A stretch of 64,000 nt of DNA. Source: Dehalococcoidia bacterium. GTDB taxonomy: Bacteria; Chloroflexota; Dehalococcoidia; SM23-28-2. The translations under genes were made by a program, and so were the position numbers. The DNA lies in assembly GCA_034429995.1 (NCBI GenBank), contig DAOUEZ010000033.1, forward strand, positions 22,294-86,293. The letters are read 5' to 3'. The notes under the pieces are model-generated. The model ran no database searches and was not told the DNA's origin. It saw nothing but the letters and a program-made list of their open reading frames with translations. Positions 117 to 22,804 of the stretch are shown here, one piece after another; position 1 is the first letter of the stretch; the number at the start of each line of letters is the position of its first letter.

Positions 117-1505
117 ATGCGTAACCGGGGAAGGAAACTCGCTCTCTCGCTTCTGGCGGGCACGCTTGCCCTGGGTCTGGTAGCCTTGATCTGGGCCATA
201 GGGATCGGCTCGTCAGAAGCCCAGCAGGACGCCATGCAGAACTGCCCCCAGGCAGGCAAGTGGGCGATATCGGTCTGGAGCGGCGATGACGGCACCGATG
301 CTGACCAGGCTTTCGCCACCTGCAATGAAGCCGGGGTGGCCGCCGCCTACAGCATCGACGCCCAGGAGAACTGGTTGGGGTGGTTCGCCGACCAACCCGA
401 CATCAGCGAACTAACTACCCTGGACGATATGCAGGGCGTCATAGCCCTCGGAGGCACAGAAGTTCCCGCCTCCCCAACGCCCAGCCCGACGGCTTCGCCG
501 ACCGTACCCGACCTCGCGGCGGGCTGGACGAAGATCGAGCCGGGCGGCGACACCATCTGCTCGCTCGGCACACCGTACGCCTACTACGTGCATCCGGGCA
601 CGGTCAACCGCCTGGTGGTCTACTTCCAGGGCGGTGGTGCCTGCTGGAACGACTTCACCTGCTCGAACCCGGACATATACTTCGACAACACCGTGGACGA
701 GAGCGACAACCCGGAGAACTGGACGGAAGGGATCGGCGACCTGGACAACCCAGACAACCCCTTCAAGGACTGGTTCTTGGTTTTCGTCCCTTACTGCACG
801 GCGGACATCCACTGGGGGGATAACACCCAGACCTACACGATAGGGGACGAGGACACCACCCTCTATCACAAAGGGTTCGTGAACGTCAGCGCAGTTCTGG
901 ACTGGATTCAGGCCAACTTCGAAAAGCCGGAAAAGATCTTCGTGTCCGGCTGCAGCGCGGGGAGCTACGGCTCCGTCATGGGCGCTCCCCACATTCACGC
1001 GCTCTACCCCGACGTGTCCCTCTACCAGCTCGGCGACGCGGGCGCCGGCGTGGTCACCGACGATTTCTTCGCAAACTGCTTCCCGAACTGGGGTGCGATA
1101 GAAAACCTCCCGGACTGGATTCCGGCGCTGGACATTCCCTGGACCGAGATTACGATGGCCAAACTCTACACCGCGCTGGCAAACTACTACTCTGACGACC
1201 GCTGGTCGCAGTACAACACGGCCTACGACGAAGCCCAGATCTTCTTCTACGCCGCTATGGGCGGCGACGCCGGCGACTGGAACGACCTCATGCTCGCCAG
1301 CATCCAGGAGATCCAGGACAGCGCTTCCAATTTCCACTCCTACACCGCCCCAGGCGCAATCCACTGCATCACCGGCGACGACATCTTCTACAGCCGCGAG
1401 GTGGAGGGCGTCAAGTTTCACGACTGGGTGGACGCCATGGTCAACGACGAGGCGTGGGACGACGTGATGTGCACGGACTGTGAGACCGACCCCGAGGCGC
1501 AATAA
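117..1505 (+). CDS. Secreted carbohydrate esterase of the pectin acetylesterase (PAE/Notum) family. Has an N-terminal signal peptide, a ~75-aa two-Cys module of unknown function, a P/T/S-rich linker, then the catalytic domain.
   Basis: AGGAGG RBS 8 nt upstream of ATG. Hydrophobic signal peptide (LALSLLAGTLALGLVALIWA). Motifs 'YFQGGGACWNDFTCS' and 'GCSAGSYGS' (GxSxG nucleophile) match PF03283 PAE-family signatures. PT-rich linker 'ASPTPSPTASPTVPD'. Confidence 0.6.
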   Translation: MRNRGRKLALSLLAGTLALGLVALIWAIGIGSSEAQQDAMQNCPQAGKWAISVWSGDDGTDADQAFATCNEAGVAAAYSIDAQENWLGWFADQPDISELTTLDDMQGVIALGGTEVPASPTPSPTASPTVPDLAAGWTKIEPGGDTICSLGTPYAYYVHPGTVNRLVVYFQGGGACWNDFTCSNPDIYFDNTVDESDNPENWTEGIGDLDNPDNPFKDWFLVFVPYCTADIHWGDNTQTYTIGDEDTTLYHKGFVNVSAVLDWIQANFEKPEKIFVSGCSAGSYGSVMGAPHIHALYPDVSLYQLGDAGAGVVTDDFFANCFPNWGAIENLPDWIPALDIPWTEITMAKLYTALANYYSDDRWSQYNTAYDEAQIFFYAAMGGDAGDWNDLMLASIQEIQDSASNFHSYTAPGAIHCITGDDIFYSREVEGVKFHDWVDAMVNDEAWDDVMCTDCETDPEAQ

Positions 1506-1586
1506 ACTCGGCGTCTCTCGCTGGCAGGGTCCGTGCCCCTGAGCCAGTCTTGACAGCTACCAGCCCGCCCTTCCATTGAGGAAGGA

Positions 1587-2675
1587 CTACGACGAGGGGT
1601 CTGCGGGCAGGGGCTCCGGCATGGCCAAGCCGAGTTCGTCCGCCAGTCGCTGTAGCGTACCCACCACCGGCGGATGGAGGGGGATGCCCTTGGCCAGCCG
1701 CTCCTCGCGGGCCTCGAATTCGCGCTGGCCGGCGACTAGCACGCGTTCGGCCCCGGCTACGGTCGGCGCGCTGCGAAACGTCCGGAGCATCTCGTCCATC
1801 ATCGCCTTGAACTCCTCCACCGGACGAAAGCCGTCGACCCGCAGGGCGCCGAAGAAATGTCCCACCTCATGCTTGATGTAATCGATGTGGAGGCTGTAGC
1901 CGAGCCCGGGCAGAACACCGCTGAGGATATCCACCACCATGGCCAGGTCGTAACCTTTGTAGGAGGCGCCTTCAGGCGTCGAGCCCAGGGGCAGCAGCCA
2001 GCCTATCCTCATGATCCGGGTCATGTCGGTCGAGGGGTTGCCCTCCTCATCCGCCCCCCAGGTTGGGGGAATCGGCTTGCCCTCCTTCCTGGCCATCTCG
2101 AACTTTCCGTGGGCGGCGGCGCTGGTGGCCATATCCAGTAGGAAAGGGTAGCCGCTGCCGACAGGTACAGCCACGGCAATAGGGTTGGTACCGAGCATAC
2201 GCCCTCGCCCGAAGGTGGGCGCCACGAAGGGAGGGCTGTTGGTGGAGGCCAGGCCGATCATGTCGTAGGGAACGGCCATCAGCGCATAATACCCAGCAGC
2301 CCCGTAGTGGCGACTCCTGGTCACAGCCACCATGCCCGTGCCGCACTCCTTCGCCTTCTCGATGGCGATGGACATCGCCCGATAGCCAACGACAGGGCCC
2401 AAGCCGCCATCGCCGTCCATCAAGGCCGTCGAAGGGGTCTCATGCACGACACGGATGTTGGGGCGGGGGTTGACCAGCCCCTGCCTAAATCCCAGCGCGT
2501 AACTGGGATGGGTCATGAGGTGAGCGACCCCGTGGGATTCGATACCCATCAGGTCGGCCTCCACTAGGATCTTCGCCGCCAGTCGGGCGTCGTCAGGCGG
2601 CACATCCATCCGCTGCAGGGCCTGGTCGACGAAGTCGCTCAGACTGGCGGCGGAGAATCGCTGCAAATCAGACAT
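1587..2675 (-). CDS. Ldh_2 family (malate/L-lactate/sulfolactate dehydrogenase type 2) NAD(P)H-dependent oxidoreductase.
   Basis: Translation 'MSDLQRF...MGIESHGVAHL...RSRHYGAAGYYALMA' matches the PF02615 Ldh_2 core. Start placed at the internal ATG (2673-2675); the long ORF N-terminal extension is Arg/Gly-rich and improbable. Confidence 0.7.
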   Translation of the reverse strand: MSDLQRFSAASLSDFVDQALQRMDVPPDDARLAAKILVEADLMGIESHGVAHLMTHPSYALGFRQGLVNPRPNIRVVHETPSTALMDGDGGLGPVVGYRAMSIAIEKAKECGTGMVAVTRSRHYGAAGYYALMAVPYDMIGLASTNSPPFVAPTFGRGRMLGTNPIAVAVPVGSGYPFLLDMATSAAAHGKFEMARKEGKPIPPTWGADEEGNPSTDMTRIMRIGWLLPLGSTPEGASYKGYDLAMVVDILSGVLPGLGYSLHIDYIKHEVGHFFGALRVDGFRPVEEFKAMMDEMLRTFRSAPTVAGAERVLVAGQREFEAREERLAKGIPLHPPVVGTLQRLADELGLAMPEPLPADPSS

Positions 2676-2710
2676 TGGGCTTGCTCCTTTGGCCGATGGC
2701 GGATGCCGCC

Positions 2711-3517
2711 CTACTGGTACGAGGGGCCGCCGGCGGCCCCGGCTTCGCCTCGACGAACCGCCCGTACGTCTTCCCCGACCGCTCGGGCCATGGCGCCGGA
2801 GTCGGAGGAGACCAGAACCATACGAAATCCCTCGGCGATGCGCTTGGGTGCGGTCGTAGCGCTGGAGTTGATGCCAGCCACAACGTTGTGGCGCCGGCAC
2901 GCCTCCAGGATGCGCTGGCGCGCTTCGGCATAGGCGGGCAGGTCGCCGTCCATTTGCGGCGGCAGGCCGAGGGAGATGCTCAGGTCCATCGGCCCGATGT
3001 AGACTGCATCAACGCCGTCCACGCTGAGAATCTCGTCCAGGTTCTCGAGGGCGGCCCTCGTCTCTATCTGGGGTATGCAGGACAGCTCCTGGTTGGCGTA
3101 GGCAAAGTAGTCCAGGCCAGCGTAATAAACGGCGCGGATGGGGCCGAAGCTGCGAATGCCCTGAGGCGGATAGCGGCAGGCAGCGACCGCTGCCTCGGCC
3201 TCTGCCCGGCTGTTCACCATGGGCACTATAACTCCGTAGGCTCCTGCGTCCAGCATCTTCATGATGATAGCCGAATCGTTCCAGGGCACGCGCACGAAAG
3301 GGGTTGTCGCTGTGGTGGAGATGGCCTGGAGCATAGCCAAGGCCGTGTCGTAGTCGATGAGCCCGTGCTGCATGTCGATGCACAGCCAGTCGAGGTTCTG
3401 GTGAGCCATCACCTCGGCCGAGAAGCCGCCCGGGATCATGAGCCAGCCCCCGAGCGCCGGTCGGTCCTGCTGCCAGAGCCGCTTAACCGCGTTCTCGCGC
3501 ATGTCTCCTGCCCCCAA
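2711..3517 (-). CDS. HpcH/HpaI family 2-keto-3-deoxy-acid aldolase. Alternative start at 3502 (MRENAV, preceded by AGGAG).
   Basis: 'LMIPGGFSAEVMAHQNLDWLCIDMQHG...VRVP...GAYGVIVPMVNS...IETRAALENLDEILSVDGVDAVYIGPMDLS' matches the HpcH/HpaI aldolase fold. Tandem with the downstream Ldh_2 gene on the same strand. Confidence 0.75.
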   Translation of the reverse strand: MGAGDMRENAVKRLWQQDRPALGGWLMIPGGFSAEVMAHQNLDWLCIDMQHGLIDYDTALAMLQAISTTATTPFVRVPWNDSAIIMKMLDAGAYGVIVPMVNSRAEAEAAVAACRYPPQGIRSFGPIRAVYYAGLDYFAYANQELSCIPQIETRAALENLDEILSVDGVDAVYIGPMDLSISLGLPPQMDGDLPAYAEARQRILEACRRHNVVAGINSSATTAPKRIAEGFRMVLVSSDSGAMARAVGEDVRAVRRGEAGAAGGPSYQ

Positions 3518-3853
3518 TGAACCGCAAATAGCTGTTCATTCCTTAGCACCCCAACGAACGGGTGTCAACTCTGTTCTGCGACGCCGCCAGAGCCAGCCCG
3601 TCCAGAGCGTGCGTCTTCCTGGGACGCGAGTGCCAGTGTATAATCGTCGACGTAGACTAGGCTAGACCGCTTCCCGCCGTCGGGCTTAGCCGGTACCGCC
3701 GGCATGGCGTAGTCGCCGTGTCAGTCCCGAGGAAACCCGGGGAGGCTGTTGAAAGACGCCTCGTTCGCCCTTCGACAGGCTCAGGGCGAGCGGCCCTGAG
3801 TTGGTGTATGCATCTCCGCTCGTGGTGAGCCCGTCGAACCATGAACGGAGACA

Positions 3854-5131
3854 ATGGATATTTTCAACAGCCTGCGGGAGTCACAGGAGGAGGCCATGAA
3901 GATCAAGGTACCGCAGCTTCTCTGGTACGACAATAGCGAGCTGGAGCTGGATTTCCCTGACTCCTGGGACGTTCACTTCTTGCCCCCGAAGGGCCACGAC
4001 CGGCCAAGGCTGAGCCGGCAGGAGATAGAGCGAGCCTTCGCCAATCCCATCGGCACGCAGCGCATTCGCGACCTGGCTCGGGGCAAGAGCGAGGCGGTCA
4101 TCATCTTCGATGACATCACCCGCCCCACCCCGACAGGTGAGATCGCTCCCTTCATCCTAGAGGAACTGAAAGAGGCGGGCATCTCTGACGACCATATCCG
4201 TTTTGTTGTTGCCCTGGGCAGCCACGGCGCTCACGACAACCACGCCCTGCGCAAGAAGCTTGGCCAGGAGATTCTGGAACGCTTCCCCGTCTACAACCAC
4301 AATCCCTGGGAGAACTGCACGCCGGTGGGCACCACCAGCCGTGGCACGCCCCTGGCGGTCAACCGAGAGGTCATGAACTGTGACCTCAAAATCGGCATCG
4401 GCTGCATCCTCCCCCACCCTCAGGTCGGCTTCGGTGGCGGAAGCAAGATCATCCTTCCGGGAGTGGCCCACATCGACAGCATCGCCCATTTTCACAGAGA
4501 GGTCATGGCCAGCGCTCCCCAGACCACGGGCATGGGAAACTATGACGACAACGTCATGCGCTTCGACGCCGAGGAGGCTGCCAGGATGGCCGGCCTCGAC
4601 CTGACGGTCGACGCCCTGTTCAACATGCGGGGGGAGATCTCGGCCCTGTTCGTGGGGGATCCGCCGCTAGAGCATCAAGAGGGAGTGAAGCTGGCCAAGG
4701 AGGTCTACGCAACAGAGGGGCTCTCGGGCGCAGACATAGCGGTGACTAACGCCTTCCTCAAGTCTAGCGAGACGGCCATTTCCATCTTCGTTGCCATACG
4801 CTCCATCAAGCTCCCAGGGGGCACTATAGTGATGATCATGAACGCGCCGGAGGGCCAGATCATCCACTACCTGCTCGGCAGCTTCGGGAAAACCTACGGC
4901 GGCAGACAATACGTCCAGCGGACGATACCGTCCGCATTCAAGGTCATCGTGCTCAACCCTCTGAAGGACTTGACCTGTGTCGACCTTTTCGGCGACGCCC
5001 AGTCCGTCACCTGGGCCAAGGACTGGGGCGAGGTGGTGGACGAGCTGCGAGCCAGCTATCCCGATGGGGCCAAGGTGGCCGTGTACCCCGACGGCACCAT
5101 GCAGTACCTAGTGGGCACCAAGCCCAGCTAG
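3854..5131 (+). CDS. LarA-like nickel-pincer-cofactor racemase/epimerase family protein (DUF2088 N-terminus).
   Basis: 'KIKVPQLLWYDNSELELDFPDSW...AVIIFDDITRPTP' matches the LarA N-terminal architecture. 425 aa is typical of the LarA family. No larBCE in the window. Confidence 0.65.
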   Translation: MDIFNSLRESQEEAMKIKVPQLLWYDNSELELDFPDSWDVHFLPPKGHDRPRLSRQEIERAFANPIGTQRIRDLARGKSEAVIIFDDITRPTPTGEIAPFILEELKEAGISDDHIRFVVALGSHGAHDNHALRKKLGQEILERFPVYNHNPWENCTPVGTTSRGTPLAVNREVMNCDLKIGIGCILPHPQVGFGGGSKIILPGVAHIDSIAHFHREVMASAPQTTGMGNYDDNVMRFDAEEAARMAGLDLTVDALFNMRGEISALFVGDPPLEHQEGVKLAKEVYATEGLSGADIAVTNAFLKSSETAISIFVAIRSIKLPGGTIVMIMNAPEGQIIHYLLGSFGKTYGGRQYVQRTIPSAFKVIVLNPLKDLTCVDLFGDAQSVTWAKDWGEVVDELRASYPDGAKVAVYPDGTMQYLVGTKPS

Positions 5132-5206
5132 CGCCCTGGGTTGTTCTATCACCGAGTTGCAGCGACACCCGCGCGTAGTATGCCATCTGGAGTGAGACCC
5201 CCTTCG

Positions 5207-5340
5207 ACAGCCTCAGGGCAGGCTTCGCTACGCTCAGGGTGACAGCATGGCCTGGCGTCATTCTGAGCGGAGCGAAGAATCTCAGCGGCGATGTGGGCAA
5301 AATGGCGGGAGCCTGTCCTGAGCGAAGCGAAGGGATGCGT
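5207..5340. repeat. Cluster of three copies of a ~20-nt motif YCTGAGCGNAGCGAAG, one inverted. Forms a 15-bp imperfect hairpin (5225-5281) between convergent genes; possible bidirectional terminator.
   Basis: 5226-5241 'ttcgctacgctcaggg' is the reverse complement of 'ccctgagcgtagcgaa'. Direct copies at 5262-5281 'tctgagcggagcgaagaatc' and 5314-5335 'tcctgagcgaagcgaagggatg'. Lies between the stop of the + gene (5131) and the stop of the - gene (5407). Confidence 0.5.
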
Positions 5341-5406
5341 CGCCACATCTTGGAGACAATACAGCCTGGATTTTCGCCCCCCGGCGGCGCTACCGTTGGC
5401 TCAGCG

Positions 5407-7692
5407 TCAATATCGCTGATCAAACCAATCGTAGACGACCCTCGATAACTGCGCGCCGAAGATATACGCCGCATACTCGGAGGGCATCGCCTGCGACAGG
5501 TAGGAGATTGCGTAGGCGATCTGCTTGCCTCCTCGTTCCATCGTCACGATTCCGACGTCATTGTAGACCCAGCCGTCCCAGTCGGGGTGGTAGCCGATCT
5601 TGTGAGCGACCCTTACCTCCGGCGGAAGAAAAAGGGGCAACACATAGTTCAACCCTGGCTTAATATCGAGGAGACGCTCAATGGTATAGGCGGTCCACTC
5701 GGCTGAGAACAGTTCCCCTCGATAGAGCTTGGCCAGTACCATGTTGGTTTCCCTGGCGGTCAGGATGTTCGGCCGCCAGTCTGGCCCCGGATAGAACGGC
5801 ACATAGCCATAAACAGAGTCTCTCATCCCCCAGCTCTGCATCAGCTCGTTGGCTCTTCCCACGCCTTCCTCCAGCGATCCTTTGATGCCCCGGACAAAGA
5901 CCGCCACCTCTGGCGGTGAGCTGTGGCCAATGCCAATCTTTATCCAGTAAGCCCAATCCTCGGGCTTCGCCCTCCCGGCTTCGAACTCCTCCACCGCCAC
6001 GAACAAGGCAAACATGTTGATGGTGCAGCCCGTCCTGTGCAGCGCATCGCCGTTGACGCAGATCGCTTCGCCCGTCTGAAGGTCGCTTACACAAATGGCC
6101 ACGTCGCCGTAGTAGTTGCGGATCCTGTCCTCCAGAACGGCCTGCAGGGCCAGGAATTCCTCCGATACCTCCACTTGGGGAGCTTCGGCCCCCGGCGCTT
6201 GCGGGGTTGGAATCAGAACGATCAGTGGCGAAAAGCCCCGCACGTAGGTCATAGTCGTAAGCTCAGGCCTTCCAGGGATAAACCGCTGCCAGGTGCCATC
6301 GACGGCCAAGCCATAAGCGACTGCGATCTGGTCACCCATTTCCCCTACAGCTACGGTGGCTTCCCTGCTCTCCCCCGAGTAGCATATGCTGTTCCACCCC
6401 GACGCCAGGACGAGATCACCGCCGGCCAGCGATGGCTCCTGCACCCAGGGGGCATAGTCGTCCGCCAAGACGAATAGCGCTTCATGGGGGCGAACAGTGC
6501 TAATGGTGCTCAAGCCCGGCCGGTCCGGGAACCAGCGGTCGTAGCGCCCATCAGGCCCCGGCCGGTAGACGGCCAAGACATTATCGGCGGCGCCTGCCAG
6601 GGCATCGGCCAGAGGCCGCTCATCGCCGAAGTAGCAAGCGTACGTCCAGCCAGGGACCAGCGTGACGCCGGGCATCCAGGAGACGATGGAGAGGCTGGCG
6701 CCGTCGGCGTGGGCCACGTAGACGCCGCCGCTGGCCAAGTCGACGTCAACCGCCGACAGGCCCCCGCCAAGGCCAACCGCCGAGGTCACTACGTTGGTAC
6801 GACCGTCAATAACCCACATGCGGTCGTCAGAGCTGCTACCCCCATAGATGCGACCGCTCGCGGAGTCGACCGCCAGGGCCTCGACCGAGCGGGGAACAGC
6901 GACAGAGTTGATAAGCGAGTTGTTGCTGGCGTCGATTACCAGAATAGTGCCGCCATCAGCGTCGCTCGCCTCCACAGCAGAGGTGGCAACGTACACTCGA
7001 TTGGAACCGCTATCCACCGCAACGTCCCAAGCCCCAACAGGCGAACCGCTAGCCAAGGGCAAGCTAGCAATCAGCAGGTTAGATACCCCATCCACCACCG
7101 CAAGATCGCCGCTTTCGCTACTGGCCACGTAGACGCGGCCCCGGTCGGGGTTCACCGCCACACCTGTCGGCAGATCGCCCACAGCCACGGTGCCGATGAC
7201 AAGATTGTGACGGCCATCGATGACCGAGACAGTGCCGCTACTGCGATTAGTAACGAAAACGCGACCCGTATTAGGGTCGACTGCCAGGTCCCAGGGTTCC
7301 TCGCCTGCAGGGAGAGTGGCGACGACCTCATTGCTTTCGCCATCTATCACCGTCACCTCGTTGCTCCCGCTGTTGGCGACGTAGACCCTGTTCGCCCTCG
7401 CATCGGCGGCTACGCCACGAGGAGCGCTACCTACCGGAATAGTAGCGATGACACTGCCGCTCGCACCGTCAATGACCGATACGTTCTCGCTCTCGGCGTT
7501 CGCCACGTAGATGCGGTTGGTGCTGGAGTTCACCGCCAGGGCCACGGGCTGGGAGCCATCGGGCTCCAGAGTGAGCGTGGTCACCAGGGCTGCGTCCTCG
7601 GGATAGGCAGGCTCGGCGGGGATAGCGGCCCCTACCACCAACAGCGCGAGGCCGACCAGAGCTAGCGCCGCAAACCGTGCTGCGAGTGCCAT
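5407..7692 (-). CDS. Secreted multi-domain protein. N-terminal signal peptide, ~6-7 YVTN-type beta-propeller repeats, and a C-terminal class-A beta-lactamase-like (PF13354-like) domain with a non-canonical active site.
   Basis: Repeated 'RVYVANSGSNEVTVIDG'-type blades. C-terminal 'VAHKIGYHPDWDGWVYNDVGIV' resembles the KTG/'AHKTG...NDxGIV' box of class A beta-lactamases. The S-x-x-K position reads 'GCTIN' (Cys for Ser, Asn for Lys). Confidence 0.55.
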   Translation of the reverse strand: MALAARFAALALVGLALLVVGAAIPAEPAYPEDAALVTTLTLEPDGSQPVALAVNSSTNRIYVANAESENVSVIDGASGSVIATIPVGSAPRGVAADARANRVYVANSGSNEVTVIDGESNEVVATLPAGEEPWDLAVDPNTGRVFVTNRSSGTVSVIDGRHNLVIGTVAVGDLPTGVAVNPDRGRVYVASSESGDLAVVDGVSNLLIASLPLASGSPVGAWDVAVDSGSNRVYVATSAVEASDADGGTILVIDASNNSLINSVAVPRSVEALAVDSASGRIYGGSSSDDRMWVIDGRTNVVTSAVGLGGGLSAVDVDLASGGVYVAHADGASLSIVSWMPGVTLVPGWTYACYFGDERPLADALAGAADNVLAVYRPGPDGRYDRWFPDRPGLSTISTVRPHEALFVLADDYAPWVQEPSLAGGDLVLASGWNSICYSGESREATVAVGEMGDQIAVAYGLAVDGTWQRFIPGRPELTTMTYVRGFSPLIVLIPTPQAPGAEAPQVEVSEEFLALQAVLEDRIRNYYGDVAICVSDLQTGEAICVNGDALHRTGCTINMFALFVAVEEFEAGRAKPEDWAYWIKIGIGHSSPPEVAVFVRGIKGSLEEGVGRANELMQSWGMRDSVYGYVPFYPGPDWRPNILTARETNMVLAKLYRGELFSAEWTAYTIERLLDIKPGLNYVLPLFLPPEVRVAHKIGYHPDWDGWVYNDVGIVTMERGGKQIAYAISYLSQAMPSEYAAYIFGAQLSRVVYDWFDQRY

Positions 7693-7824
7693 AAGGCAGA
7701 CTGCCTTTTCATATTTGAGCGAACCGAGAATAACCCCAGAGCCTTTCTTAACGAATTGACAACGGTTTTGAAACAGTCAGACAATAGCACGTCAATTTAT
7801 CAGAAAGGAAGGAGACATGCTAGG

Positions 7825-8520
7825 ATGCAATACAAGACTATCTTGGTAGAAAAGAAGAACCATATAGCGATTCTCACCCTTAATAGACCGGAGAAATTGA
7901 ATGCCATGAATCTGGAGTTAAAGAACGAGCTCTACCACGCCCTGGATGAGTTGGAGGCTGATGATGATGTTCGAGTTGTAATTATGACCGGGGCTGGGAA
8001 AGCTTTTTCATCAGGCCATGATATGAGCGCCCCTCCTTCCGAACTACCGCAGTTCGTAAGTCTCAAGGAAGAAGAGAAGCTACTCAACCTTGATAAGCCT
8101 GTAATAGCAGCAATACACGGGTATACTCTGGGCGACGGACTTCAACAGGCATTGTTGTGCGATATTATTGTCGCCTCGGAGAATGCTGTCCTTGGTTTCA
8201 TAGGGGCTCGGGTAGGGGGGCTGTGTTATGGCTCCTTCTCGGTTGTTCCCGCTGTCGTAGGCAGGAGTAAAGCCAACGAGCTGCTCTTTACCTGTGACCA
8301 GATAAGCGCCGAAGAGGCTCATAGAATCGGCCTGGTGAACAAAGTGGTACCCCACGAGCAACTTATGCCCGCAGTCTTAGAGATGGCCGAGAAAATCATG
8401 AAATCCCCACCGCTATCGATAAAGTATACCAAGCGTGCGCTGAGGACGGCGTTGGTTAATCATGCTCACCGCAGGGCCCTGGAGGACGGATGGCGTGCCA
8501 TCCTAGAGGCCAGCAGATGA
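7825..8520 (+). CDS. Enoyl-CoA hydratase/isomerase (crotonase) family protein. Lies in a low-GC segment.
   Basis: 'HIAILTLNRPEKLNAMN...VRVVIMTGAGKAFSSGHD' is the crotonase fold signature. RBS 'aaggaaggag' precedes ATG 7825; the upstream in-frame extension was rejected. Local GC is clearly lower than its flanks. Confidence 0.8.
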   Translation: MQYKTILVEKKNHIAILTLNRPEKLNAMNLELKNELYHALDELEADDDVRVVIMTGAGKAFSSGHDMSAPPSELPQFVSLKEEEKLLNLDKPVIAAIHGYTLGDGLQQALLCDIIVASENAVLGFIGARVGGLCYGSFSVVPAVVGRSKANELLFTCDQISAEEAHRIGLVNKVVPHEQLMPAVLEMAEKIMKSPPLSIKYTKRALRTALVNHAHRRALEDGWRAILEASR

Positions 8521-8711
8521 AAGAGATGGTTCAAGCCTCCAGCCTGATGTTGCCTACGTGCTCGGCGCTGTGGCCAATGACCAAGGTCAGGAGGAGCTTA
8601 GCGAGGGTGCCGGATACACCCCAGGGCATGGTCATATCCTTGGCCAGCAGCTCGTCTGAGCTGGGACTATCGTCCGGGGCGAAGTTGCTACTGCGTCGGC
8701 TGAGCAGCAGC

Positions 8712-10088
8712 CTACATCCCCGCGAACTGCTTGATGCAGACGATAGAGCAGTCGCGACCGTGGATTCGCTCTGCCTCGGCCACGGCCTCCTCGACGCTGG
8801 CGGTCGGGATGAAGCCCACGTGTCGTGGCACCGCCGGGTCCTCCGCTCCAGCCACGAATACGCGAGCCGCGTGTCGCAGGCGCTTCAGTGGATGCGTCGC
8901 CAGTATCCCATGCACCGGGTGGAAGGCATAGCCGTTGCGGTAGCGCTCGATATAGTCGGCCCGACTGGCGAACTCGTCCATGAAGCGAGCGGTAATCTCG
9001 TACGGGTCGAGGGTCTCCGGCAGCACTCGGTTCCACACCTCCGGGTACGAGGGATGATGCTCCATATCCCAGTCCTCTGGGCAAGGCGTGGCCATGATCA
9101 CCGAGCAGCCTGGCTTGCCCAGAGCCTCGATGTAGCCCCCCAGGTAGCCAAGCCCGGAAGAGATCAGGGTTAGAATGGGGTTCATACGAGCGAAGGTGGC
9201 ATATGGGCTCCAGGCTGGAAGCCCGTAGATCACCACGTCAGCGGGGTCGGTGGCGGCACGCCGTGGCTGGTACAGCGAAGCCTGTACCTCAAGCGCTGCG
9301 GCCCGCGTCTCGTCCACGCCGCCGGCAAACACACGTCCGATGGTCGCCGGGTTAGCCAGCAACGTCTCCACCTTAAACACTCGGCGGCCCAGCCTTGACT
9401 CCAGATGCCGGCCCATCTCATCGAAGACGGCGTGCATCCGGTTGCCCCGCACAGACATCGTCATGCCGTCCGGCGTATGCGTCCAGCGAATGGAGCGCCA
9501 GGTGGACAGCCCAACGCAGACCGATTTCCAGCCGCCATTGAAGCCCAGGTAGCAGGCGGCATTGATGTACACAGTCAAGTCCGACTCCGCTACCAGGCGA
9601 TGAACCTCCACATCATATCCATTGGGCGTTTTGCCCATGTACACGAGGTTGTCCGGGTCTTCGGCATCCTGGCAGCTCAGACGCGATCCGAAGCGCTGCA
9701 CCAGCTCCTGCCCCAGGATGGTCGCTAGCTCCTGGTGCGTCCACCTGCGGTGGAGTCCGTTGGCGCAAACGAGCGAGACGTTCTCCTCAGGCACACCGGC
9801 TTCCGCCAGCTCTTCCAGGATTGCTTCGATGGCCAATCGCCTGACGGGACCGAACGACGGCGCTGTCGGATCGTCGAAGGCAATAAGCACCCGAGCCCCG
9901 GGACGAACCAGTTGGCCGACGCGGGGCAGGCCCAGCGGCTCCGCCAGCGCAGCTCGAACGGCCGCCTCTTGATCTGCCACCGGCTCCAGACGGGGCCCCC
10001 GACGCTCGCCGCCTACCAGTCGGGTGCGGTCGGGAAGGCTCACGTCTATGTTCGTGTTACCAAAGACCAGCGACTGTTCGATCATCAT
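8712..10088 (-). CDS. Second LarA-like racemase/epimerase paralog (DUF2088 + LarA C-terminal domain).
   Basis: 'RVLIAFDDPTAP...' N-terminal LarA-like core. GGAGGAGG RBS immediately upstream of ATGATG at 10088. Paralogous to 3854..5131. Confidence 0.65.
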   Translation of the reverse strand: MMIEQSLVFGNTNIDVSLPDRTRLVGGERRGPRLEPVADQEAAVRAALAEPLGLPRVGQLVRPGARVLIAFDDPTAPSFGPVRRLAIEAILEELAEAGVPEENVSLVCANGLHRRWTHQELATILGQELVQRFGSRLSCQDAEDPDNLVYMGKTPNGYDVEVHRLVAESDLTVYINAACYLGFNGGWKSVCVGLSTWRSIRWTHTPDGMTMSVRGNRMHAVFDEMGRHLESRLGRRVFKVETLLANPATIGRVFAGGVDETRAAALEVQASLYQPRRAATDPADVVIYGLPAWSPYATFARMNPILTLISSGLGYLGGYIEALGKPGCSVIMATPCPEDWDMEHHPSYPEVWNRVLPETLDPYEITARFMDEFASRADYIERYRNGYAFHPVHGILATHPLKRLRHAARVFVAGAEDPAVPRHVGFIPTASVEEAVAEAERIHGRDCSIVCIKQFAGM

Positions 10089-10328
10089 CGCGCCTCCTCC
10101 CAGTCTGCACCTGATTCTAGCGGCCGACACCTGGTCAGGCAAGAAGTGCGGTTCGTCAGCGACTTCCGAACTCTGTATAAGCGGTTCCTAGTGAGCACCT
10201 GGGGGGGCCGCCTGCTTTTCCCTCAGGCCGTGGTGGGCTGCCGCTAGCCCCCACATTTCGGCCGTGCAAGGCAGCCCGTCCAGCAGGGCGCATCGTGCAT
10301 CCCAGAAATTTCTGGCAACGATTTTCTA

Positions 10329-10356
10329 TTGACACCAACTCGACCAGCGATAACAT
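10329..10356 (+). promoter_or_regulatory. Candidate sigma70-type promoter upstream of the hopanoid operon (TTGACA-N16-TAACAT).
   Basis: 'ttgacaccaactcgaccagcgataacat' lies in the 430-nt intergenic region ~220 nt upstream of hpnC. Sequence match only. Confidence 0.3.
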
Positions 10357-10574
10357 GTTGGCCAAGGAAGAAGAGGGGAGGCATTGCACAGGTAACTTAG
10401 CTTTTAACTGCTCGTCGCACGGATTGGGGCAGAGGCGGAAAGGGTTGGGTGCGTCCTTGGGTGGTGTAGAGGGAAAATCAGTCGCTATCGTTGTTGTGTT
10501 GTCGATGTAATCCCCGAAGTGCCTCCTAGAGACGCCCCGAGTTCTCCTTCCCCGTTGCCCGAACTCCTCGACCG

Positions 10575-11534
10575 TTGATGCCCGCCGTTCGACGGCGGGA
10601 GAAAGTATTGTTTGTGTCTGTCTGCCCGCCCACAAGGAGGCGACCGCTGGAACGGCAACCGGCGAACGCTCACACCACCGCTGAGGCGTTTATCTATTGT
10701 CAGCGGCTCGCTGTGAGCCACTACGAGAACTTCACCGTGGCCTCCTGGCTTCTTCCCAGGGCACTCCGCCAGCACGTCTATGCTGTCTACGCCTTCTGCC
10801 GCCACGTGGACGACCTGGGCGATGAAGCGCCGGGCGACCGGCTGAGCCTGCTGGACGACTGGCAGACGGAGCTGGAGCGTTGCTACCACTCGACGCCCCG
10901 CCATCCCATCCTCATGGCCCTTCGGGAGACCATTCGCTGTTTTGCTATCCCGCCAGAGCCCTTCCTCAAGCTCATCGAGGCCAACCGCATGGACCAGCGC
11001 ACAAGCCGCTACCCCACCTTCGAGGAACTCCTCCACTACTGCGATCATTCCGCCAACCCCGTCGGCCACCTGTTCCTCTATCTCTTCAGCTATGCGGACG
11101 CTGAGCGCCAGGGTCTCGCCGATGCCACCTGCACCGCCTTACAGCTCACCAACTTCTGGCAGGACATCGCTGTCGATCTGGGCAAAGGCCGGGTGTACAT
11201 ACCGCTGGAAGATATGGCCCGCTTCGGCTACTCCGAGGAGGAGCTGGAGCGAGGCATCATAAACGATGGCTTCCGTGCTCTTATGGCCTTCGAGGTCGGC
11301 CGAACAAGGGAGTTGTTCGCCAAAGGGCTGGGGCTCCTGGACATGGTGGATGGCCGTCTGAAGGTGGACCTCAAGCTGTTCAGCCTGGGTGGCCTAGCTG
11401 TCCTGGAAGCCCTCGAGAGGAACGACTACGATGTCTTTCGTCGGCGGCCGCGGCTTTCGCGCTGGCAAAAGGCCGCCCTCTTCGTCCGCGGCCTCCTGCC
11501 CGGCCGGCCAGCAGTGAAAACCTGGAGGAGATGA
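10575..11534 (+). CDS. hpnC: Hydroxysqualene synthase HpnC (squalene/phytoene synthase family). Exact start uncertain.
   Basis: 'YENFTVASWLLP' and 'YCDHSANPVGHL' match HpnC-type signatures (SANPVG). First gene of the tandem hpnC-hpnD pair. Confidence 0.7.
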   Translation: MMPAVRRREKVLFVSVCPPTRRRPLERQPANAHTTAEAFIYCQRLAVSHYENFTVASWLLPRALRQHVYAVYAFCRHVDDLGDEAPGDRLSLLDDWQTELERCYHSTPRHPILMALRETIRCFAIPPEPFLKLIEANRMDQRTSRYPTFEELLHYCDHSANPVGHLFLYLFSYADAERQGLADATCTALQLTNFWQDIAVDLGKGRVYIPLEDMARFGYSEEELERGIINDGFRALMAFEVGRTRELFAKGLGLLDMVDGRLKVDLKLFSLGGLAVLEALERNDYDVFRRRPRLSRWQKAALFVRGLLPGRPAVKTWRR

Positions 11535-11537
11535 TCT

Positions 11538-12398
11538 GTGGAAGGCTCAGTGCAGGGAGCCTACCGATACTGCCAAGAGCTAGCTAAGCGGGAGGCAAGA
11601 AACTTCTACTACGGCTTTATCCTCTTGCCGCCTGCAAAGAGACAGGCTATCTACGCCGTCTACGCATTCGCCCGCCGCTGCGACGACATTGTGGACGACG
11701 ACCTGGAGCCGGAGGAAAAGGTCCGACAACTGGCCGAATATCGTCGCCGGTTGGAGCAATGCCTGCACGGCCAGCCCTCCGGCCCCACCTTCCTGGCCCT
11801 GCAGGATACCATCCGCCGATACGGTATCCCACCTGAGTACTTCTGGCAGCTCATCGACGGTGTGGAGATGGACCTGACCGTACGCCGTTACCCCACCTTC
11901 GCTGAACTGCGCCGCTACTGCTACGGCGTTGCCTCCACTGTGGGCCTCATCAGCATCGAGATCTTCGGCTATCGCGACGGCCAGCAAGCCCGCCAGCACG
12001 CTGAAGACCTGGGTATTGCCTTGCAGCTTACAAACATCCTGCGGGATATCCGCGAGGACGCTCACAGGGGCCGCATCTACATCCCCCAGGACGAAATGGA
12101 GCGCTTCCGCTATTCGGAAGCCGACATCTTTAACGGCATCGTCAATGAACCGTCTCTGCACCTCATGCAGTTCCAGGTGGAGCGAGCGCGCGAGTACTTC
12201 GAGCGGGGGCGAAAGCTGCTGCCTCTCCTCCCTCGTCGCTCCCGCGCCTGCACAGCCGTCCTCCAGGGCATCTACAGCAGGATCTTGGAACGTATCGAGG
12301 CTCAGCCGTCCGCTGTGCTGCGAGAGCGCGTGAGTCTAAGTGGCAGCCAGAAGCTAGCCCTGGCTGGCCGGGAGCTTGTTCGGAGCCTGGTGACGTGA
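11538..12398 (+). CDS. hpnD: Presqualene diphosphate synthase HpnD (squalene/phytoene synthase family).
   Basis: 'YCYGVASTVGLISIEIFG' and DxxxD-containing regions are typical of HpnD/CrtB-type enzymes. GTG start 4 nt after the hpnC stop. Confidence 0.7.
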   Translation: MEGSVQGAYRYCQELAKREARNFYYGFILLPPAKRQAIYAVYAFARRCDDIVDDDLEPEEKVRQLAEYRRRLEQCLHGQPSGPTFLALQDTIRRYGIPPEYFWQLIDGVEMDLTVRRYPTFAELRRYCYGVASTVGLISIEIFGYRDGQQARQHAEDLGIALQLTNILRDIREDAHRGRIYIPQDEMERFRYSEADIFNGIVNEPSLHLMQFQVERAREYFERGRKLLPLLPRRSRACTAVLQGIYSRILERIEAQPSAVLRERVSLSGSQKLALAGRELVRSLVT

Positions 12399-13846
12399 CT
12401 GAGGGGAAGCCGCAGGTAATCATCATCGGCGGTGGCCTGGCTGGCCTGGCGGCGGCCTGTGAGCTAGCGGAGCACGGGTACAAAGCCGTCCTCGCTGAGC
12501 GGCGGCCCTCCCTGGGCGGTCGCGCCTACTCCTTTTCCGACCCTCAGGGGAAGGGAGAGGTAGACAATGGCCAGCACGTGTTCCTGAAATGCTGCACCTA
12601 TTACATCCGCTTCCTCCAGAAGCTAGGTGTTTGGCACAAGGTCGACCTGCAGAAGCAATTGCGGGTGACCGTCATCGATCCCCACACGGGGGCCAGCACC
12701 CTGGCGAGCTCTTCTCTCCCCGCTCCCTTCCATCTCCTGCCCTCCTTCCTGCGCTTTCGCCACCTCTCCCCTCTGGACAAGGCGCGGGCGGCCTACGCCA
12801 TGCTCTCCATCCTTTTCAGCGACCGGACGAGGAACAATAAGCTCGACTCCATCAGCTTCTATCGCTGGCTAAAGAACCACGGCCAGACCGAGGCAGCTAT
12901 CGACCGCTTCTGGAACCTGATCGTTCTCGCTACCCTCAACGACGACATTCGAAGGGTCAGCGCCGACCTGGCGATGATGGTCTTTCAGGAGGGTTTCTTG
13001 AAGCGGGCAGACGGGGCCAACGTTGGCTACGCGGCGGTGGGGCTTACCAGCCTCGTCGGCAGGGAGGCCCGCCGCTACATTGAGGAGCGAGGCGGTCGTG
13101 TCATCCTGGGCCAAAAGACGGAAGAGCTCTTGCTGGAGAGAAAGCGCATAGGGGGCGCCAGGCTCGCCGACGGCAGCATCCTGCAGGGGGAATGGTACGT
13201 CTGCGCGGTGCCCCACGAGATGCTCCTGACCGTCATTCCGCCTAGCCTCCGCAGCGACCCCTTTTTCCGACGGGCGAACAAGCTCACTACAACCCCCATC
13301 GTCAACATCCACCTCTGGTACGACCGGCCGGTCATGGACCTCGACTTCGCCGCCTTCATCAATAGCGAGGCGCAATGGGTGTTCAACAAAAGCAAGATGT
13401 GGCATCTGGCCGGCGATGGCCAGTACTTGGACGTCTCCCTCAGCGGGGCGCGGCACTACATCGACCTACCCAAGGAAGAGCTCATCGAGCGCTTCACGGG
13501 CGAGCTTCGCAGGCTCTTCCCCAGGGCTCGCCAGGCACGGGTAGAGCGCTGCCTGGTGGTGAAGCAGCGACAGGCCACCTTCGCTGCCGTGGCAGGCTCC
13601 GGCAAGTACCGCCTGCCCTGTCGTACGCCCATCGAAAACCTCTTCCTGGCTGGCGATTGGACAGCCACGGGATGGCCGGCCACTATGGAGAGCGCTGTCC
13701 GGAGCGGCGTTGCCTGCGCCAGAGAGATACGTCGTCTCGCGCCTCAGGCCGCACAGAAAGGAGGTGATCAAGAGACTCTCGACACTTCCACCGAGACCCG
13801 ATCAAGAAGCAATCTTCATCTGTCATCCGTTAGGAGCAAGTCATGA
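12395..13846 (+). CDS. hpnE: Hydroxysqualene dehydroxylase HpnE (FAD-dependent amine-oxidase-like).
   Basis: N-terminal 'VIIIGGGLAGLAAACELAEHGYKAVLAERRPSLGGRAYSF' FAD-binding fold. GTGA start/stop overlap with hpnD, implying translational coupling. Position after hpnCD. Confidence 0.7.
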   Translation: MTEGKPQVIIIGGGLAGLAAACELAEHGYKAVLAERRPSLGGRAYSFSDPQGKGEVDNGQHVFLKCCTYYIRFLQKLGVWHKVDLQKQLRVTVIDPHTGASTLASSSLPAPFHLLPSFLRFRHLSPLDKARAAYAMLSILFSDRTRNNKLDSISFYRWLKNHGQTEAAIDRFWNLIVLATLNDDIRRVSADLAMMVFQEGFLKRADGANVGYAAVGLTSLVGREARRYIEERGGRVILGQKTEELLLERKRIGGARLADGSILQGEWYVCAVPHEMLLTVIPPSLRSDPFFRRANKLTTTPIVNIHLWYDRPVMDLDFAAFINSEAQWVFNKSKMWHLAGDGQYLDVSLSGARHYIDLPKEELIERFTGELRRLFPRARQARVERCLVVKQRQATFAAVAGSGKYRLPCRTPIENLFLAGDWTATGWPATMESAVRSGVACAREIRRLAPQAAQKGGDQETLDTSTETRSRSNLHLSSVRSKS

Positions 13847-15174
13847 AGATCAAGAAAGCTAAAGCCCTAGGTTTTTGCTTCGGAGTGCGCCGAGCCATCG
13901 AGGTCGTAGAACGAGGGGCGGAAGAGTATGGGCCTATCGACAGCCTGGGCTCAATAGTGCACAATCCGGAAGTGGTCAAACGCCTGGCTGCCAAGGGCGT
14001 TGATGTAGTGAATGGGCTAGAGCATGTCCAGAACGGCACCGTCGCTATCACCGCCCATGGCGCCAGACCCGAAGTGACGCACGAGGCGGCGGCGCGAGGG
14101 CTACACCTGGTCGATGCCACCTGCCCCATCGTGCGCAGGTTGCAGAAGATGGCCCAGCGCCTGCAGGCCGGCGGCTTCCAGGTGTTGATCTACGGTGACG
14201 AGCATCACCCAGAGGTGCGAGCCGTCCTGGCCTGGACCAATGGCGATGGCTCTGCCTTGCAGGACCCGGAGGCGCCTCTGGCGATTCGCCGACGCAAGGT
14301 GGCTCTCCTCTCCCAGACCACCAAGAGCGCGGAATCCTTCACTGCTTTCGTGGCCAAGTTCATGACCAAACATATCGGCTGCATAAACGAACTGCGGGTC
14401 ATCAACACCACCTGTCCCGAGACCGAGGAGCGTTACCAGGCGGCGCGCGAGCTGGCCAAGGAATGCGACCTCCTTATCGTTGTAGGCGGCAGGACCAGCG
14501 CTAACACCCGCAAGCTGGCCGATACCTGTATCGCTACGGGCGTGGAGACCCAACAGGTGGAGACGGCTGCCGAGATCGACCCTGCCTGGCTGGTGGGCAA
14601 AGACTCGGTTGGGGTGACCGCCGGCGCTTCCACCCCCGACGAGTCCATCGACCAGGTTGTGCAGCACCTTCAGGAGCTGGCCAGCCAGCGCCATAGAGCC
14701 GTGAGCGAACAGCGCGAGGGCTTGCCGGGTGTGAAGTTTTCCTTCCGCAGCCTTACGATTCGCACAGACAAGGGGCCGCAGTTCATCGACATCACCGACG
14801 GGGTCGCTAGCCTTGCCCAAGAGTCGACCATCCGCAACGGGTTTGCCATCGTCTTCACTCGCCACACGACGGCAGCCATTCGCATCAACGAGAACGAACC
14901 CCTGCTCTTACGTGACATGGAGGAGTTCCTAGGGAAGGTTGCTCCCGCCCATGTCTACTACAACCACAATGACTTCAGTCGTCGCACCGCCAACATGACC
15001 GATAACGAGCAGCCCAACGGCCATGCCCACTGCCAGCAACTCCTCCTGGGGGCAAGCGAGGCCATCCCTATCGTCGCTGGCCAGCTCCTCCTCGGGCAGT
15101 GGCAACGCCTCTTCCTGGTGGAGCTCGACCGGGGCCGGGAGCGGGAGGTCGTGGTTCAGTTGGTGGGAGAGTAG
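13843..15174 (+). CDS. ispH: 4-hydroxy-3-methylbut-2-enyl diphosphate reductase (IspH/LytB) fused to a C-terminal YjbQ/UPF0047 domain; 443 aa.
   Basis: N-terminal ~300 aa has IspH hallmarks ('GFCFGVRRAIE', 'ATCPIV', 'NTTCPETEE'). The C-terminal ~130 aa ('IVFTRHTTAAIRINENEPLLLRDMEEFL...HAHCQQLLLGASEAIPIVAGQLLLGQWQRLFLVELDRGREREVVV') matches the YjbQ/UPF0047 pattern. AGGAG RBS upstream. Confidence 0.75.
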   Translation: MKIKKAKALGFCFGVRRAIEVVERGAEEYGPIDSLGSIVHNPEVVKRLAAKGVDVVNGLEHVQNGTVAITAHGARPEVTHEAAARGLHLVDATCPIVRRLQKMAQRLQAGGFQVLIYGDEHHPEVRAVLAWTNGDGSALQDPEAPLAIRRRKVALLSQTTKSAESFTAFVAKFMTKHIGCINELRVINTTCPETEERYQAARELAKECDLLIVVGGRTSANTRKLADTCIATGVETQQVETAAEIDPAWLVGKDSVGVTAGASTPDESIDQVVQHLQELASQRHRAVSEQREGLPGVKFSFRSLTIRTDKGPQFIDITDGVASLAQESTIRNGFAIVFTRHTTAAIRINENEPLLLRDMEEFLGKVAPAHVYYNHNDFSRRTANMTDNEQPNGHAHCQQLLLGASEAIPIVAGQLLLGQWQRLFLVELDRGREREVVVQLVGE

Positions 15175-15175
15175 G

Positions 15176-16204
15176 ATGGAACTGCCCAACCTTTTCGCCC
15201 GTTATCGCATCGAGCTGGAGGAGTATCTCCGATCGGCCCTGCCAGAGAGCAGCCCGGCGCTCCTCTATCGCATGATGCGCTACCACCTTGGCTGGGAGGA
15301 CGAGCAGGGCCGCCCCCTGGCCGAGGGCGCGGGGAAGGCTCTCCGTCCCACCCTTTGTCTCTGGGCCTGTCAGGCAGCAGGCGGTGACTGGCGAACCGCC
15401 CTACCAGCGGCCGCTGCCCTGGAACTGGCGCACAACTTCTCCCTCGTACATGACGACATCCAGGATGCCGACAGAGAGCGGCGCCATCGACCGACCGTCT
15501 GGAGCCTGTGGGGCCAGCCCCAGGCGATCAATGCCGGCGATAGTCTGCTGATCTTGGGCCGTCTTGTCATGTTGCGATTGGAGGAGCGAGGCGTAGCCCC
15601 GGCTAAGGTCATCGAGGCCTGTCGCGTACTGGACGAGGCCTGCCTGGAGATGATCAAAGGACAATGCTTGGATATCAGCTTCGAAGATGAGCGAGAGGTG
15701 AGTGTGGAGGCCTACCTGGACATGATCGCCAGGAAGACGGGCGCCCTCCTGGGAGCTTCCCTGCATCTGGGTGCCCTCGTGGCCATCGATGACGAGCCGC
15801 AGGTGAAACGCTTCGCCCGCTGCGGCCACCTCCTCGGCCTAGCCTTCCAGATTCGCGATGATATCCTGGGCGTCTGGGGCGCTGCCGATGTCACCGGCAA
15901 GCCAGTCGCGGCCGATATTCGCCGCCGCAAGAAGTCACTGCCGGTAGTCTACGCCATGGCCGTGGCCCAGGCTGAGGAGCGCGAGCAGTTGCTCCGAGTC
16001 TACAGCCAGGGGACGCCAAGTGACGAGGAGGTAAGTATTGTCCTCCAACTGTTAGACAGCCACAGAGCCTACGACTACTGCCAGCAGATGGCTCAAGAGC
16101 GCATTGAGGAAGCCCTGGCGGAGCTGGCACAGGTGGACATGGAGCCGACAGCCCGGCGCGAGTTCGAGGCGGTGGCCAAGTTCCTGCTGGAGCGAGAATT
16201 CTAG
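15176..16204 (+). CDS. Polyprenyl diphosphate synthase (FPP/GGPP synthase family).
   Basis: Two Asp-rich motifs, 'LVHDDIQDAD' and 'FQIRDDILG'. ATG 1 nt after the ispH stop; the ORF-track N-terminal extension overlapping ispH was rejected. Confidence 0.8.
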   Translation: MELPNLFARYRIELEEYLRSALPESSPALLYRMMRYHLGWEDEQGRPLAEGAGKALRPTLCLWACQAAGGDWRTALPAAAALELAHNFSLVHDDIQDADRERRHRPTVWSLWGQPQAINAGDSLLILGRLVMLRLEERGVAPAKVIEACRVLDEACLEMIKGQCLDISFEDEREVSVEAYLDMIARKTGALLGASLHLGALVAIDDEPQVKRFARCGHLLGLAFQIRDDILGVWGAADVTGKPVAADIRRRKKSLPVVYAMAVAQAEEREQLLRVYSQGTPSDEEVSIVLQLLDSHRAYDYCQQMAQERIEEALAELAQVDMEPTARREFEAVAKFLLEREF

Positions 16205-16240
16205 GAGCATGGCGAATCCGCCGATGTCGAGGGGAGTTGC

Positions 16241-17257: not shown

Positions 17258-17267
17258 GAGCGAGACG

Positions 17268-19972: not shown

Positions 19973-20097
19973 GAACCTTTCTCTTGCCAATCATCGCGCC
20001 TGGGAGTAGCATGGGGCTGCCCCGATTGTTAGGACTATCAACCTCCCGGCCATGGGAAACAGGCAGGAAATATCCAACTAAGGAGGCTGATGCAGCC

Positions 20098-21396: not shown

Positions 21397-21428
21397 GGTC
21401 AGCGGCGCCTGTGCGCGTGCTGCCAACC

Positions 21429-22088: not shown

Positions 22089-22189
22089 CTGCGGCTAACT
22101 ACCTGCCGCCGACGGCCGGAGAGTCGGCGCTCGATCCCAACAAAGGCATGAATTATCCTGAGAGCCCTACATCGCCCGGGCTGGGGCGA

Positions 22190-22516: not shown

Positions 22517-22804
22517 AGTATCCTCCTGCTCCCCTCCGATCTGTCGTCGGGGGCAAATCTCCCACTCTTGGATTGCCTGCCTCTACGTCGGGAGATGATC
22601 CGCAGGAGGCAGCAACTGTTCAGAGTATATACCCTTCTCCTAGGATTAGGGAAGTAATTAACTAACCAAGCCCCCCGGCGTCCCTTTTCCAGGTTGTCGA
22701 TTTGGGAGGTTGGAGCCATCGCCACTCCTAACCAACGAAGGGGGGGAGGGCGGAGGTTCCACCCTCCCCCCGGAGCAGATGTCCCTGGCAATCGAGCGCC
22801 GCTC

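Follow-up and report, generated by a model that had tools for sequence, protein, structure and literature searches.

The closest described counterparts of the element reported here are found among the accessory modules of extracellular proteins, and conceptually it is a module of this known kind. It comprises about 76 residues with an invariant pair of cysteines and was found on two predicted secreted proteins encoded in a stretch of 64,000 nucleotides (in its full length hereafter the window) from a Dehalococcoidia bacterium (assembly GCA_034429995.1, contig DAOUEZ010000033.1, positions 22,294 to 86,293). Sediments, aquifers, and the deep ocean harbour abundant Dehalococcoidia, which are almost uncultured, and the attachment of their surface proteins is little understood.

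Like the element described here, SLH (PF00395) and CWB2 (PF04122) domains are short and autonomous, are located at either terminus of many secreted proteins that are otherwise unrelated, and often occur in tandem, with many paralogues in a genome. They retain exoproteins on cells that have no outer membrane, a role that the new module may share. However, neither family showed sequence similarity to it in hmmscan searches, and SLH domains are all-helical and work as a triplet that binds a pyruvylated secondary cell-wall polymer, whereas the module is predicted to be an alpha/beta domain, has an invariant cysteine pair, and mostly occurs in one or two copies. Type I dockerins (PF00404) are similar in their size of about 70 amino acids, their terminal position, their Pro/Thr linkers, their occurrence on varied enzymes and non-enzymes, and their presence in dozens per genome. 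In contrast to these, the module has no duplicated calcium-binding F-hand segment and no Pfam match, is often the first domain after the leader and also occurs in tandem, and no cohesin partner was found at its loci. Carbohydrate-binding modules (CBMs) likewise are small, aromatic-rich accessory modules separated by linkers, and one partner of the new module is a pectin acetylesterase (PAE)-like enzyme, but its partners are dominated by proteins other than carbohydrate-active enzymes (CAZymes) and no CBM family matched it.

Two copies of the module in the window

The two-cysteine module, referred to as type A (CP...C), occurs in the products of two open reading frames (ORFs), 117..1505 on the plus strand and 22805..23887 on the minus strand. 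Residues 40–112 of the former and 288–359 of the latter are identical at 29 of 73 positions (40%) with one gap (BLASTP, E = 2e-12), and no similar segment was detected by BLASTP between the two products outside the module. Used as a tblastn query against the whole 64-kb window, each module recovered its counterpart with E ~3e-14. Common to both copies are the two cysteines, a CP dipeptide, W12, W17, G19, an AAY motif, a further W, and an MQ dipeptide.

The first carrier gene, 117..1505, codes for a 462-amino-acid predicted secreted PAE-like alpha/beta-hydrolase with the module at its predicted mature N-terminus. Its Sec-type leader (residues 1–35; 117..221, plus strand) has an n-region MRNRGRK, a hydrophobic core of about 24 residues, and a c-region G-I-G-S-S-E-A, and would be cleaved between SEA and QQ. 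The hidden Markov model (HMM) envelope of the first type-A copy covers residues 38–115 (228..461, plus strand; independent E-value 2.5e-35), with C43 (243–245) and C69 (321–323) as the invariant cysteines. It is followed by a Pro/Thr/Ser linker, read from the translation as TEVPASPTPSPTASPTVPD (residues 115–132; 459..512, plus strand), and by the PAE-like esterase domain (552..1502, plus strand), in which the GCSAGS nucleophile motif is present. The profile places this partner in the pectin acetylesterase family PF03283 (residues 146–311, nucleotides 552..1049; 72.9 bits versus a cut-off of 26.6, E = 3.4e-20), its substrate being predicted only. An identical 462-amino-acid product was called on at least 24 metagenome contigs of up to 130 kb, which indicates that the source organism is recurrent and abundant in the respective samples. 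These contigs (L041–L043) come from several Joint Genome Institute and Sequence Read Archive metagenomes and have identical neighbouring genes.

The second carrier gene, 22805..23887, codes for a predicted secreted protein of 360 amino acids that consists of a leader, a domain of about 210 residues, a Thr/Pro linker with a 37-residue (T/P)n run (residues 249–285; 23033..23143, minus strand, according to the translation), and the second type-A copy. The latter (residues 286–360; 22808..23032, minus strand; independent E-value 3.2e-27) contains C291 and C316 and reaches the C-terminus of the protein. Relatives of this carrier have the same leader (MKRLPFRRG...) and C-terminal module, but three DUF11/CARDB repeats in between. 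Residues 36–248 had no Pfam domain match, the protein giving just a low-complexity match of 0.19 on the linker, and none in the PDB (phmmer); the domain closes with an Asp-rich stretch, DQDSDGSVDED, resembling a calcium-binding loop. A cohesin-like nature of this N-terminal domain was considered and dropped as unsubstantiated, with neither a Pfam nor a PDB match and an unusable single-sequence AlphaFold2 (AF2) model with a predicted local distance difference test score (pLDDT) of 34.7.

The preliminary description of the window, made from its letters alone, had noted both the 40% identity and the Pro/Thr-rich linkers in the two proteins, and these observations held up. The interval that it gave for the N-terminal module, 117–420, begins at the start codon of the signal peptide and loses the last 14 residues of the envelope. 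The two copies that it had recognized are real, whereas the window holds four copies of the wider superfamily (see below). Its view of the segment as an autonomous module of no recognized family agrees with the distribution, linker, and fold data presented in the following, which include a profile search and a structure prediction as it had proposed them in kind, and with Pfam and NCBIfam scans that assigned the module to no CBM, dockerin, or cohesin family.

Family size, distribution, and conservation

An exhaustive hmmsearch of 1.84 billion protein cluster representatives with a five-sequence profile retrieved 415 representatives at E ≤ 1e-3, 266 at E ≤ 1e-10, and 127 at E ≤ 1e-30; a word-indexed search with the two window copies yielded five metagenomic fragments only. 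When one genome of each GTDB species was scanned with a pattern, 39 module loci were located in about a dozen metagenome-assembled genomes (MAGs), which are labelled Dehalococcoidia (nearly all), Chloroflexota, or Chloroflexia, except for one contig binned as Bathyarchaeia. This 3.3-kb contig (L013; CAYHEV010000121.1), which carries a typical type-A carrier gene within a ‘Candidatus Bathyarchaeia’ MAG, is probably a binning error and not an archaeal occurrence. As far as sampled, the superfamily is confined to the Chloroflexota and mainly to uncultured Dehalococcoidia.

Carriers were surveyed among 150 listed representatives of the 415, the ORFs of the loci, and the window proteins. This set contained 313 modules in 196 carriers, with 149 modules in N-terminal position (start within the first 75 residues), 32 in C-terminal position (end at most 15 residues before the C-terminus), and 132 internal ones, which mostly are the second copy of a tandem pair. 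One module was present in 90 carriers, two in 100, three in a single carrier, and four in five carriers. Among 290 non-redundant type-A copies C6, P7, and C32 are conserved to 100%, and W12, W17, G19, A28, Y41, and W50 to at least 96%. The complete 2.18-Mb genome CP070630.1 encodes at least 22 modules in 14 ORFs, counted in the fetched 10-kb pieces only. In the source annotations, carriers are named after their partner domain only or are listed as “hypothetical protein.”

Carrier genes tend to cluster. The window has three of them in a span of 24 kb (117..23887), and further clusters are found in CP070630.1 at 296–333 kb (L016, L024, L015) and 681–704 kb (L019, L008), and in JAUWYP010000004 at 52–72 kb (L002, L036). 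Runs of masked bases, translated as X, break several carrier ORFs of CP070630.1 (L008, L015, L029, L031), and some apparent fusions in this genome are artefacts of reading through such masks, for example an alanyl-tRNA-synthetase-like N-terminus in L029.

Predicted fold and absence from domain catalogues

The isolated type-A module was modelled with AF2 from a 21-row alignment of modules, resulting in a pLDDT of 94.1 and a predicted template modelling score of 0.83. DSSP assigned strands to residues 4–6, 14–20, 39–45, 51–55, and 72–77 of this model, plus a two-residue strand at 66–67 and a single five-residue helix at 27–31; type A is thus predicted to be a small alpha/beta domain in which six strands are combined with one short helix. 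Foldseek found no match to this model in the PDB (best E 0.34, template modelling score ≤ 0.36) or in BFVD (best E 0.34), and a profile hmmsearch of the PDB sequences returned nothing better than E 1.6.

The catalogued families against which the module was tested at their curated thresholds included CBMs, dockerin, cohesin, SLH, LysM, SH3b, GW, CWB2, Por_Secre_tail, and choice-of-anchor domains. The isolated window modules had no relevant Pfam or NCBIfam match even at E ≤ 10, and no match of the full-length window proteins fell on the module region, those of the first two carriers being PAE or the low-complexity linker. Similarly, none of the 25 most frequent families in a scan of 91 carriers models the module, and a full-text literature search found no description of it.

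DUF3564 and DUF5926 gave marginal, partial, and inconsistent overlaps with some copies and were rejected as family assignments. The matches to DUF3564 (PF12087) reached 20–27 bits against a cut-off of 25 and were restricted to some of the copies in four-module proteins. They cover the second half of the module (AAYW.DP.TQ.W.RYF...), but only 40–60 of the 120 profile positions (19–61 or 19–78), and the CP...C half was never matched; the window copies did not match DUF3564 even at E ≤ 10. This overlap is treated as a sub-threshold coincidence of motifs and not as family membership.

That the two window ORFs merely resemble each other by chance or composition, with no real domain behind the resemblance, might be suspected in a stretch of 62% G + C with many spurious antisense ORFs. 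This would be extraordinarily improbable and is refuted by the pairwise E-value of 2e-12, the hundreds of homologues with invariant residues, the confident structure prediction, and the identical gene call on the at least 24 contigs mentioned above. There is hardly any doubt that the segment is a real, uncatalogued domain, that it belongs to a family, that it is mobile and occurs in an extracytoplasmic context, and that its fold is predicted with confidence.

Three subtypes form a wider superfamily

Two of the four superfamily copies in the window are divergent tandem copies that have no cysteine pair (type C). They are part of a third carrier gene, 5407..7692 on the minus strand, in whose product of 761 amino acids a leader and a YVTN/NHL beta-propeller precede the two tandem modules, which are followed in turn by a domain resembling class-A beta-lactamases (PF13354, E = 2.5e-16). 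This is an unusual fusion with an orthologue in L036 (6565..8973). The repeats were first seen as weak tblastn matches (E 0.002). With an HMM combining the subtypes, the first type-C copy (6454..6681, minus strand) obtained an independent E-value of 4.3e-16 and the second (6202..6417, minus strand) 5.5e-15, compared to 1.2e-05 and 3.9e-05, respectively, with an HMM of type A only. Both match the two-cysteine modules column for column, except for C6 and C32, and an HMM made from these two repeats alone picked up two-cysteine modules in nearly all loci; the detection also worked in the converse direction.

Type B retains the cysteine after the helix and has a new one at its extreme C-terminal end (AFAC...PVSC-x-MPVAP). 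It usually occurs in tandem and C-terminally, and is often preceded by the “EPDNFDCTSH” motif of DUF11-type repeats. Examples are found in L005 (2709..4442), L006 (6392..7822), L015 (three minus-strand ORFs), L021 (7833..9563), and P0170–P0253; the 84 database fragments that match type B are all hypothetical proteins, some of them from Anaerolineae.

The profiles of type A and types B/C aligned in hhalign with a probability of 99.3% (E = 2.1e-20), and all three subtypes have a common core of W12, W17, G19, A28-L29, A40-Y41, W50, R52, R57-P58, S61, and L75. A polar and aromatic motif, W..R-[YW]-[FV]..R-P.[IL]-S, is kept in every subtype. Judged by these profile comparisons, types A, B, and C form one new superfamily with a unit of about 75 amino acids. 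In type A a disulfide between C6 and C32 presumably staples the domain: in type C both cysteines have been lost together and in type B one has been re-partnered, a pattern that is expected for a structural disulfide.

Leaders and linkers

Heuristic counts were made for the leaders of 112 N-terminal carriers. Lys or Arg occurs within the first 12 residues in 93% of these leaders, the median length of the uncharged stretch is 25 residues, and S-x-A-[QEAV] is present in 69%. Such leaders, in which a basic n-region precedes a hydrophobic h-region and positions −3 and −1 are occupied by small residues, identify the carriers as predicted Sec-dependent secreted proteins. The junction of leader and module has the consensus G-x-G-S-S-E-A-Q-Q-G-x-M-H-N-C-P, which is kept across paralogues with unrelated cargo and suggests either that leader and module were duplicated en bloc as a cassette or that the leader contains a specialized processing signal. 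The Gln at the mature N-terminus could cyclize to pyroglutamate. A reading of the CP cysteine as that of a lipoprotein was rejected, since the preceding M-H/Q-N is no lipobox and the cysteine is also invariant in internal and C-terminal copies. Linkers are frequent in the carriers, as Pro, Thr, Ser, and Ala make up on average 54% of the 25 residues after a module, compared to a background of 34%.

The co-conservation of the leader and the first module residues across unrelated cargo, with the invariant cysteine at position 43 in 66 of the 112 N-terminal carriers, would also be compatible with a role in export, sorting, or folding. Leader and module could then be a cassette for dedicated secretion or processing, or the module could serve as an intramolecular chaperone or as a pro-domain destined for later removal; some of the cargos are indeed proteases (S8, M4), a class that often has pro-domains. 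Such a role is nevertheless very unlikely, because the 32 C-terminal and 132 internal or tandem copies are distant from any leader, most cargos are not proteases, and no dedicated sorting gene is conserved nearby.

Partner domains

Partners were determined for 91 carriers, in which 57 Pfam families were matched and the 25 most frequent ones listed. Most common were PD40/TolB-like propellers (18 carriers), followed by DUF333 and InlB B-repeats (five each), subtilases (S8; four), NosD/beta-helix, CAP, and metallo-beta-lactamase domains (three each), and TSP3 (two), with GH5, thermolysin (M4), and RCC1 in one carrier each. The list of the 25 most frequent families includes neither PAE nor known anchoring domains such as SLH or LysM. 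The PAE-like esterase is also linked to the module in L002 and L003. In L002 (3567..6239) the PAE-like orthologue follows an N-terminal region of about 470 residues with Asp-rich TSP3-like repeats, and two tandem modules are located in the middle of the protein, an architecture which indicates that the module moves together with its cargo.

The preliminary description had suggested, with the PAE partner in mind, that the module may bind plant polysaccharides such as pectin. As a CBM, it would target its catalytic partner to an environmental polysaccharide. Consistent with this idea, the domain is small, rich in Trp (4.9%, versus 2.3% in the rest of the proteins), and set off by Pro/Thr linkers, and its partner is a PAE-like esterase both in the window and in L002/L003, and GH5 in one case. 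Most of its partners, however, are not CAZymes (PD40 propellers, proteases, CAP, metallo-beta-lactamase, DUF333, DUF11), no CBM family in Pfam was matched, proteins consisting only of modules occur, and CBMs are not usually placed at the extreme N-terminus after a co-conserved leader. With so few partners acting on carbohydrates a pectin-binding CBM is disfavoured and appears quite unlikely; the partner spectrum rather fits a general surface-retention or docking module than a substrate-specific CBM.

A putative surface retention device

Dehalococcoidia are monoderms with an S-layer, and peptidoglycan has been lost in many of their orders (PMC10284905). The reading that we favour, with a probability of roughly 45%, is that the module is a shared retention or docking device that holds secreted proteins on the cell's own monoderm envelope via a common ligand. 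The extracytoplasmic domain of about 76 residues has been shuffled onto many unrelated secreted proteins, in which it is placed directly after the conserved Sec leader, as a tandem pair, or C-terminally, usually with Pro/Thr linkers. According to the retention model, following export and cleavage of the leader, the module would bind one common ligand on the surface of its own cell, with an S-layer protein or an envelope glycan as candidates, so that exoproteins that otherwise would be soluble (the esterase, proteases, beta-propellers, and DUF11 surface proteins) stay attached. The monoderm cell has no outer membrane to retain such proteins. Tandem copies would raise the avidity.

Several lines of evidence lead to this model. 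The extracytoplasmic setting, the terminal positions, the linkers, the tandem duplication, the many paralogues per small genome, the extreme diversity of partners with few CAZymes, the module-only proteins, the motif kept across subtypes, and the restriction to one lineage together point to a function that does not depend on the cargo and is shared by the entire surface and secreted proteome. The lack of a conserved operon partner at the loci agrees with this. Retention is favoured by these cargo-independent traits taken together with monoderm cells that need a retention device and the absence of a known one from the 25 most frequent partner families.

Other observations weigh against retention. 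No candidate for a ligand or receptor of the module emerged from the analyses. The acidity of the module (net charge about −5, isoelectric point 4.3) does not differ from that of the other parts of the carriers, and its charge thus does not point to an anionic-polymer ligand as in SLH or CWB2. A few carbohydrate-active partners (PAE and one GH5) would fit a role with glycan substrates. Furthermore, the long hydrophobic leader, with its median uncharged stretch of 25 residues, could remain uncleaved and serve as a membrane anchor. N-terminal carriers would then be tethered anyway, and a retention module would be superfluous.

Docking in the manner of dockerins, where the modules would bind a protein receptor or each other and thereby assemble diverse enzymes into an extracellular multi-protein complex, likewise has to be weighed. 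A four-module protein family with seven members in five genomes (L026, L027, L029, L032; P0006) is of particular relevance here. These proteins consist of four positionally distinct modules around an Ig-like segment of about 100 residues with its own cysteine pairs and little else, and are candidates for a hub or cross-linker. Such a protein, made almost wholly of four positionally distinct modules and present in at least five genomes, agrees with a docking system, as do the size of about 70 residues, the terminal position, the Pro/Thr linkers, the many unrelated enzymes, and the many paralogues per genome. However, neither a cohesin-like receptor nor a partner gene conserved beside the carriers was found in the neighbourhoods of the 40 loci and the window, there is no match to the dockerin family PF00404 and no duplicated calcium-binding loop, and the consensus is a single non-repetitive unit with beta-strand patterns, for which AF2 predicted six strands and one five-residue helix. 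A dockerin-like system consequently appears unlikely.

Genes adjacent to the carriers

In the window, the carriers lie beside ordinary metabolic genes with no relation to the module (Ldh_2, Lar_N, ECH, a periplasmic binding protein, RRM, and an alpha/beta hydrolase). Two lactate-racemase-like Lar_N genes (3854..5131, plus strand; 8712..10142, minus strand) and an Ldh_2 dehydrogenase gene (1587..2900, minus strand) flank the carriers and may form a small metabolic cluster unrelated to the module. When the 421 ORFs of 41 sequences (40 loci and the window) were clustered all against all, no recurrent family other than carriers emerged.

Implications

Since carriers are currently annotated by their partner or as hypothetical proteins, the module would merit a new entry in domain databases. 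Its confident model without a match in the PDB makes it a well-defined target for structure determination, and the module itself is a candidate affinity tag to pull down the envelope ligand or receptor. As this one domain marks a large proportion of the secreted proteins of Dehalococcoidia, with no fewer than 14 genes encoding it in one 2.2-Mb genome, it allows their surface proteome to be predicted at the sequence level. A more far-reaching reading, which at present has to be regarded as doubtful, is that the module represents a new fold and the universal surface-docking device of a large uncultured clade of Dehalococcoidia, a counterpart of SLH domains and dockerins in which a hub would display esterases, proteases, and propeller proteins. 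The four-module protein or the S-layer would then be this hub on a wall-less or thin-walled monoderm cell, and the set of cargos would be changeable. If the module were indeed a general surface-display system of this uncultured clade, the finding would gain further interest.

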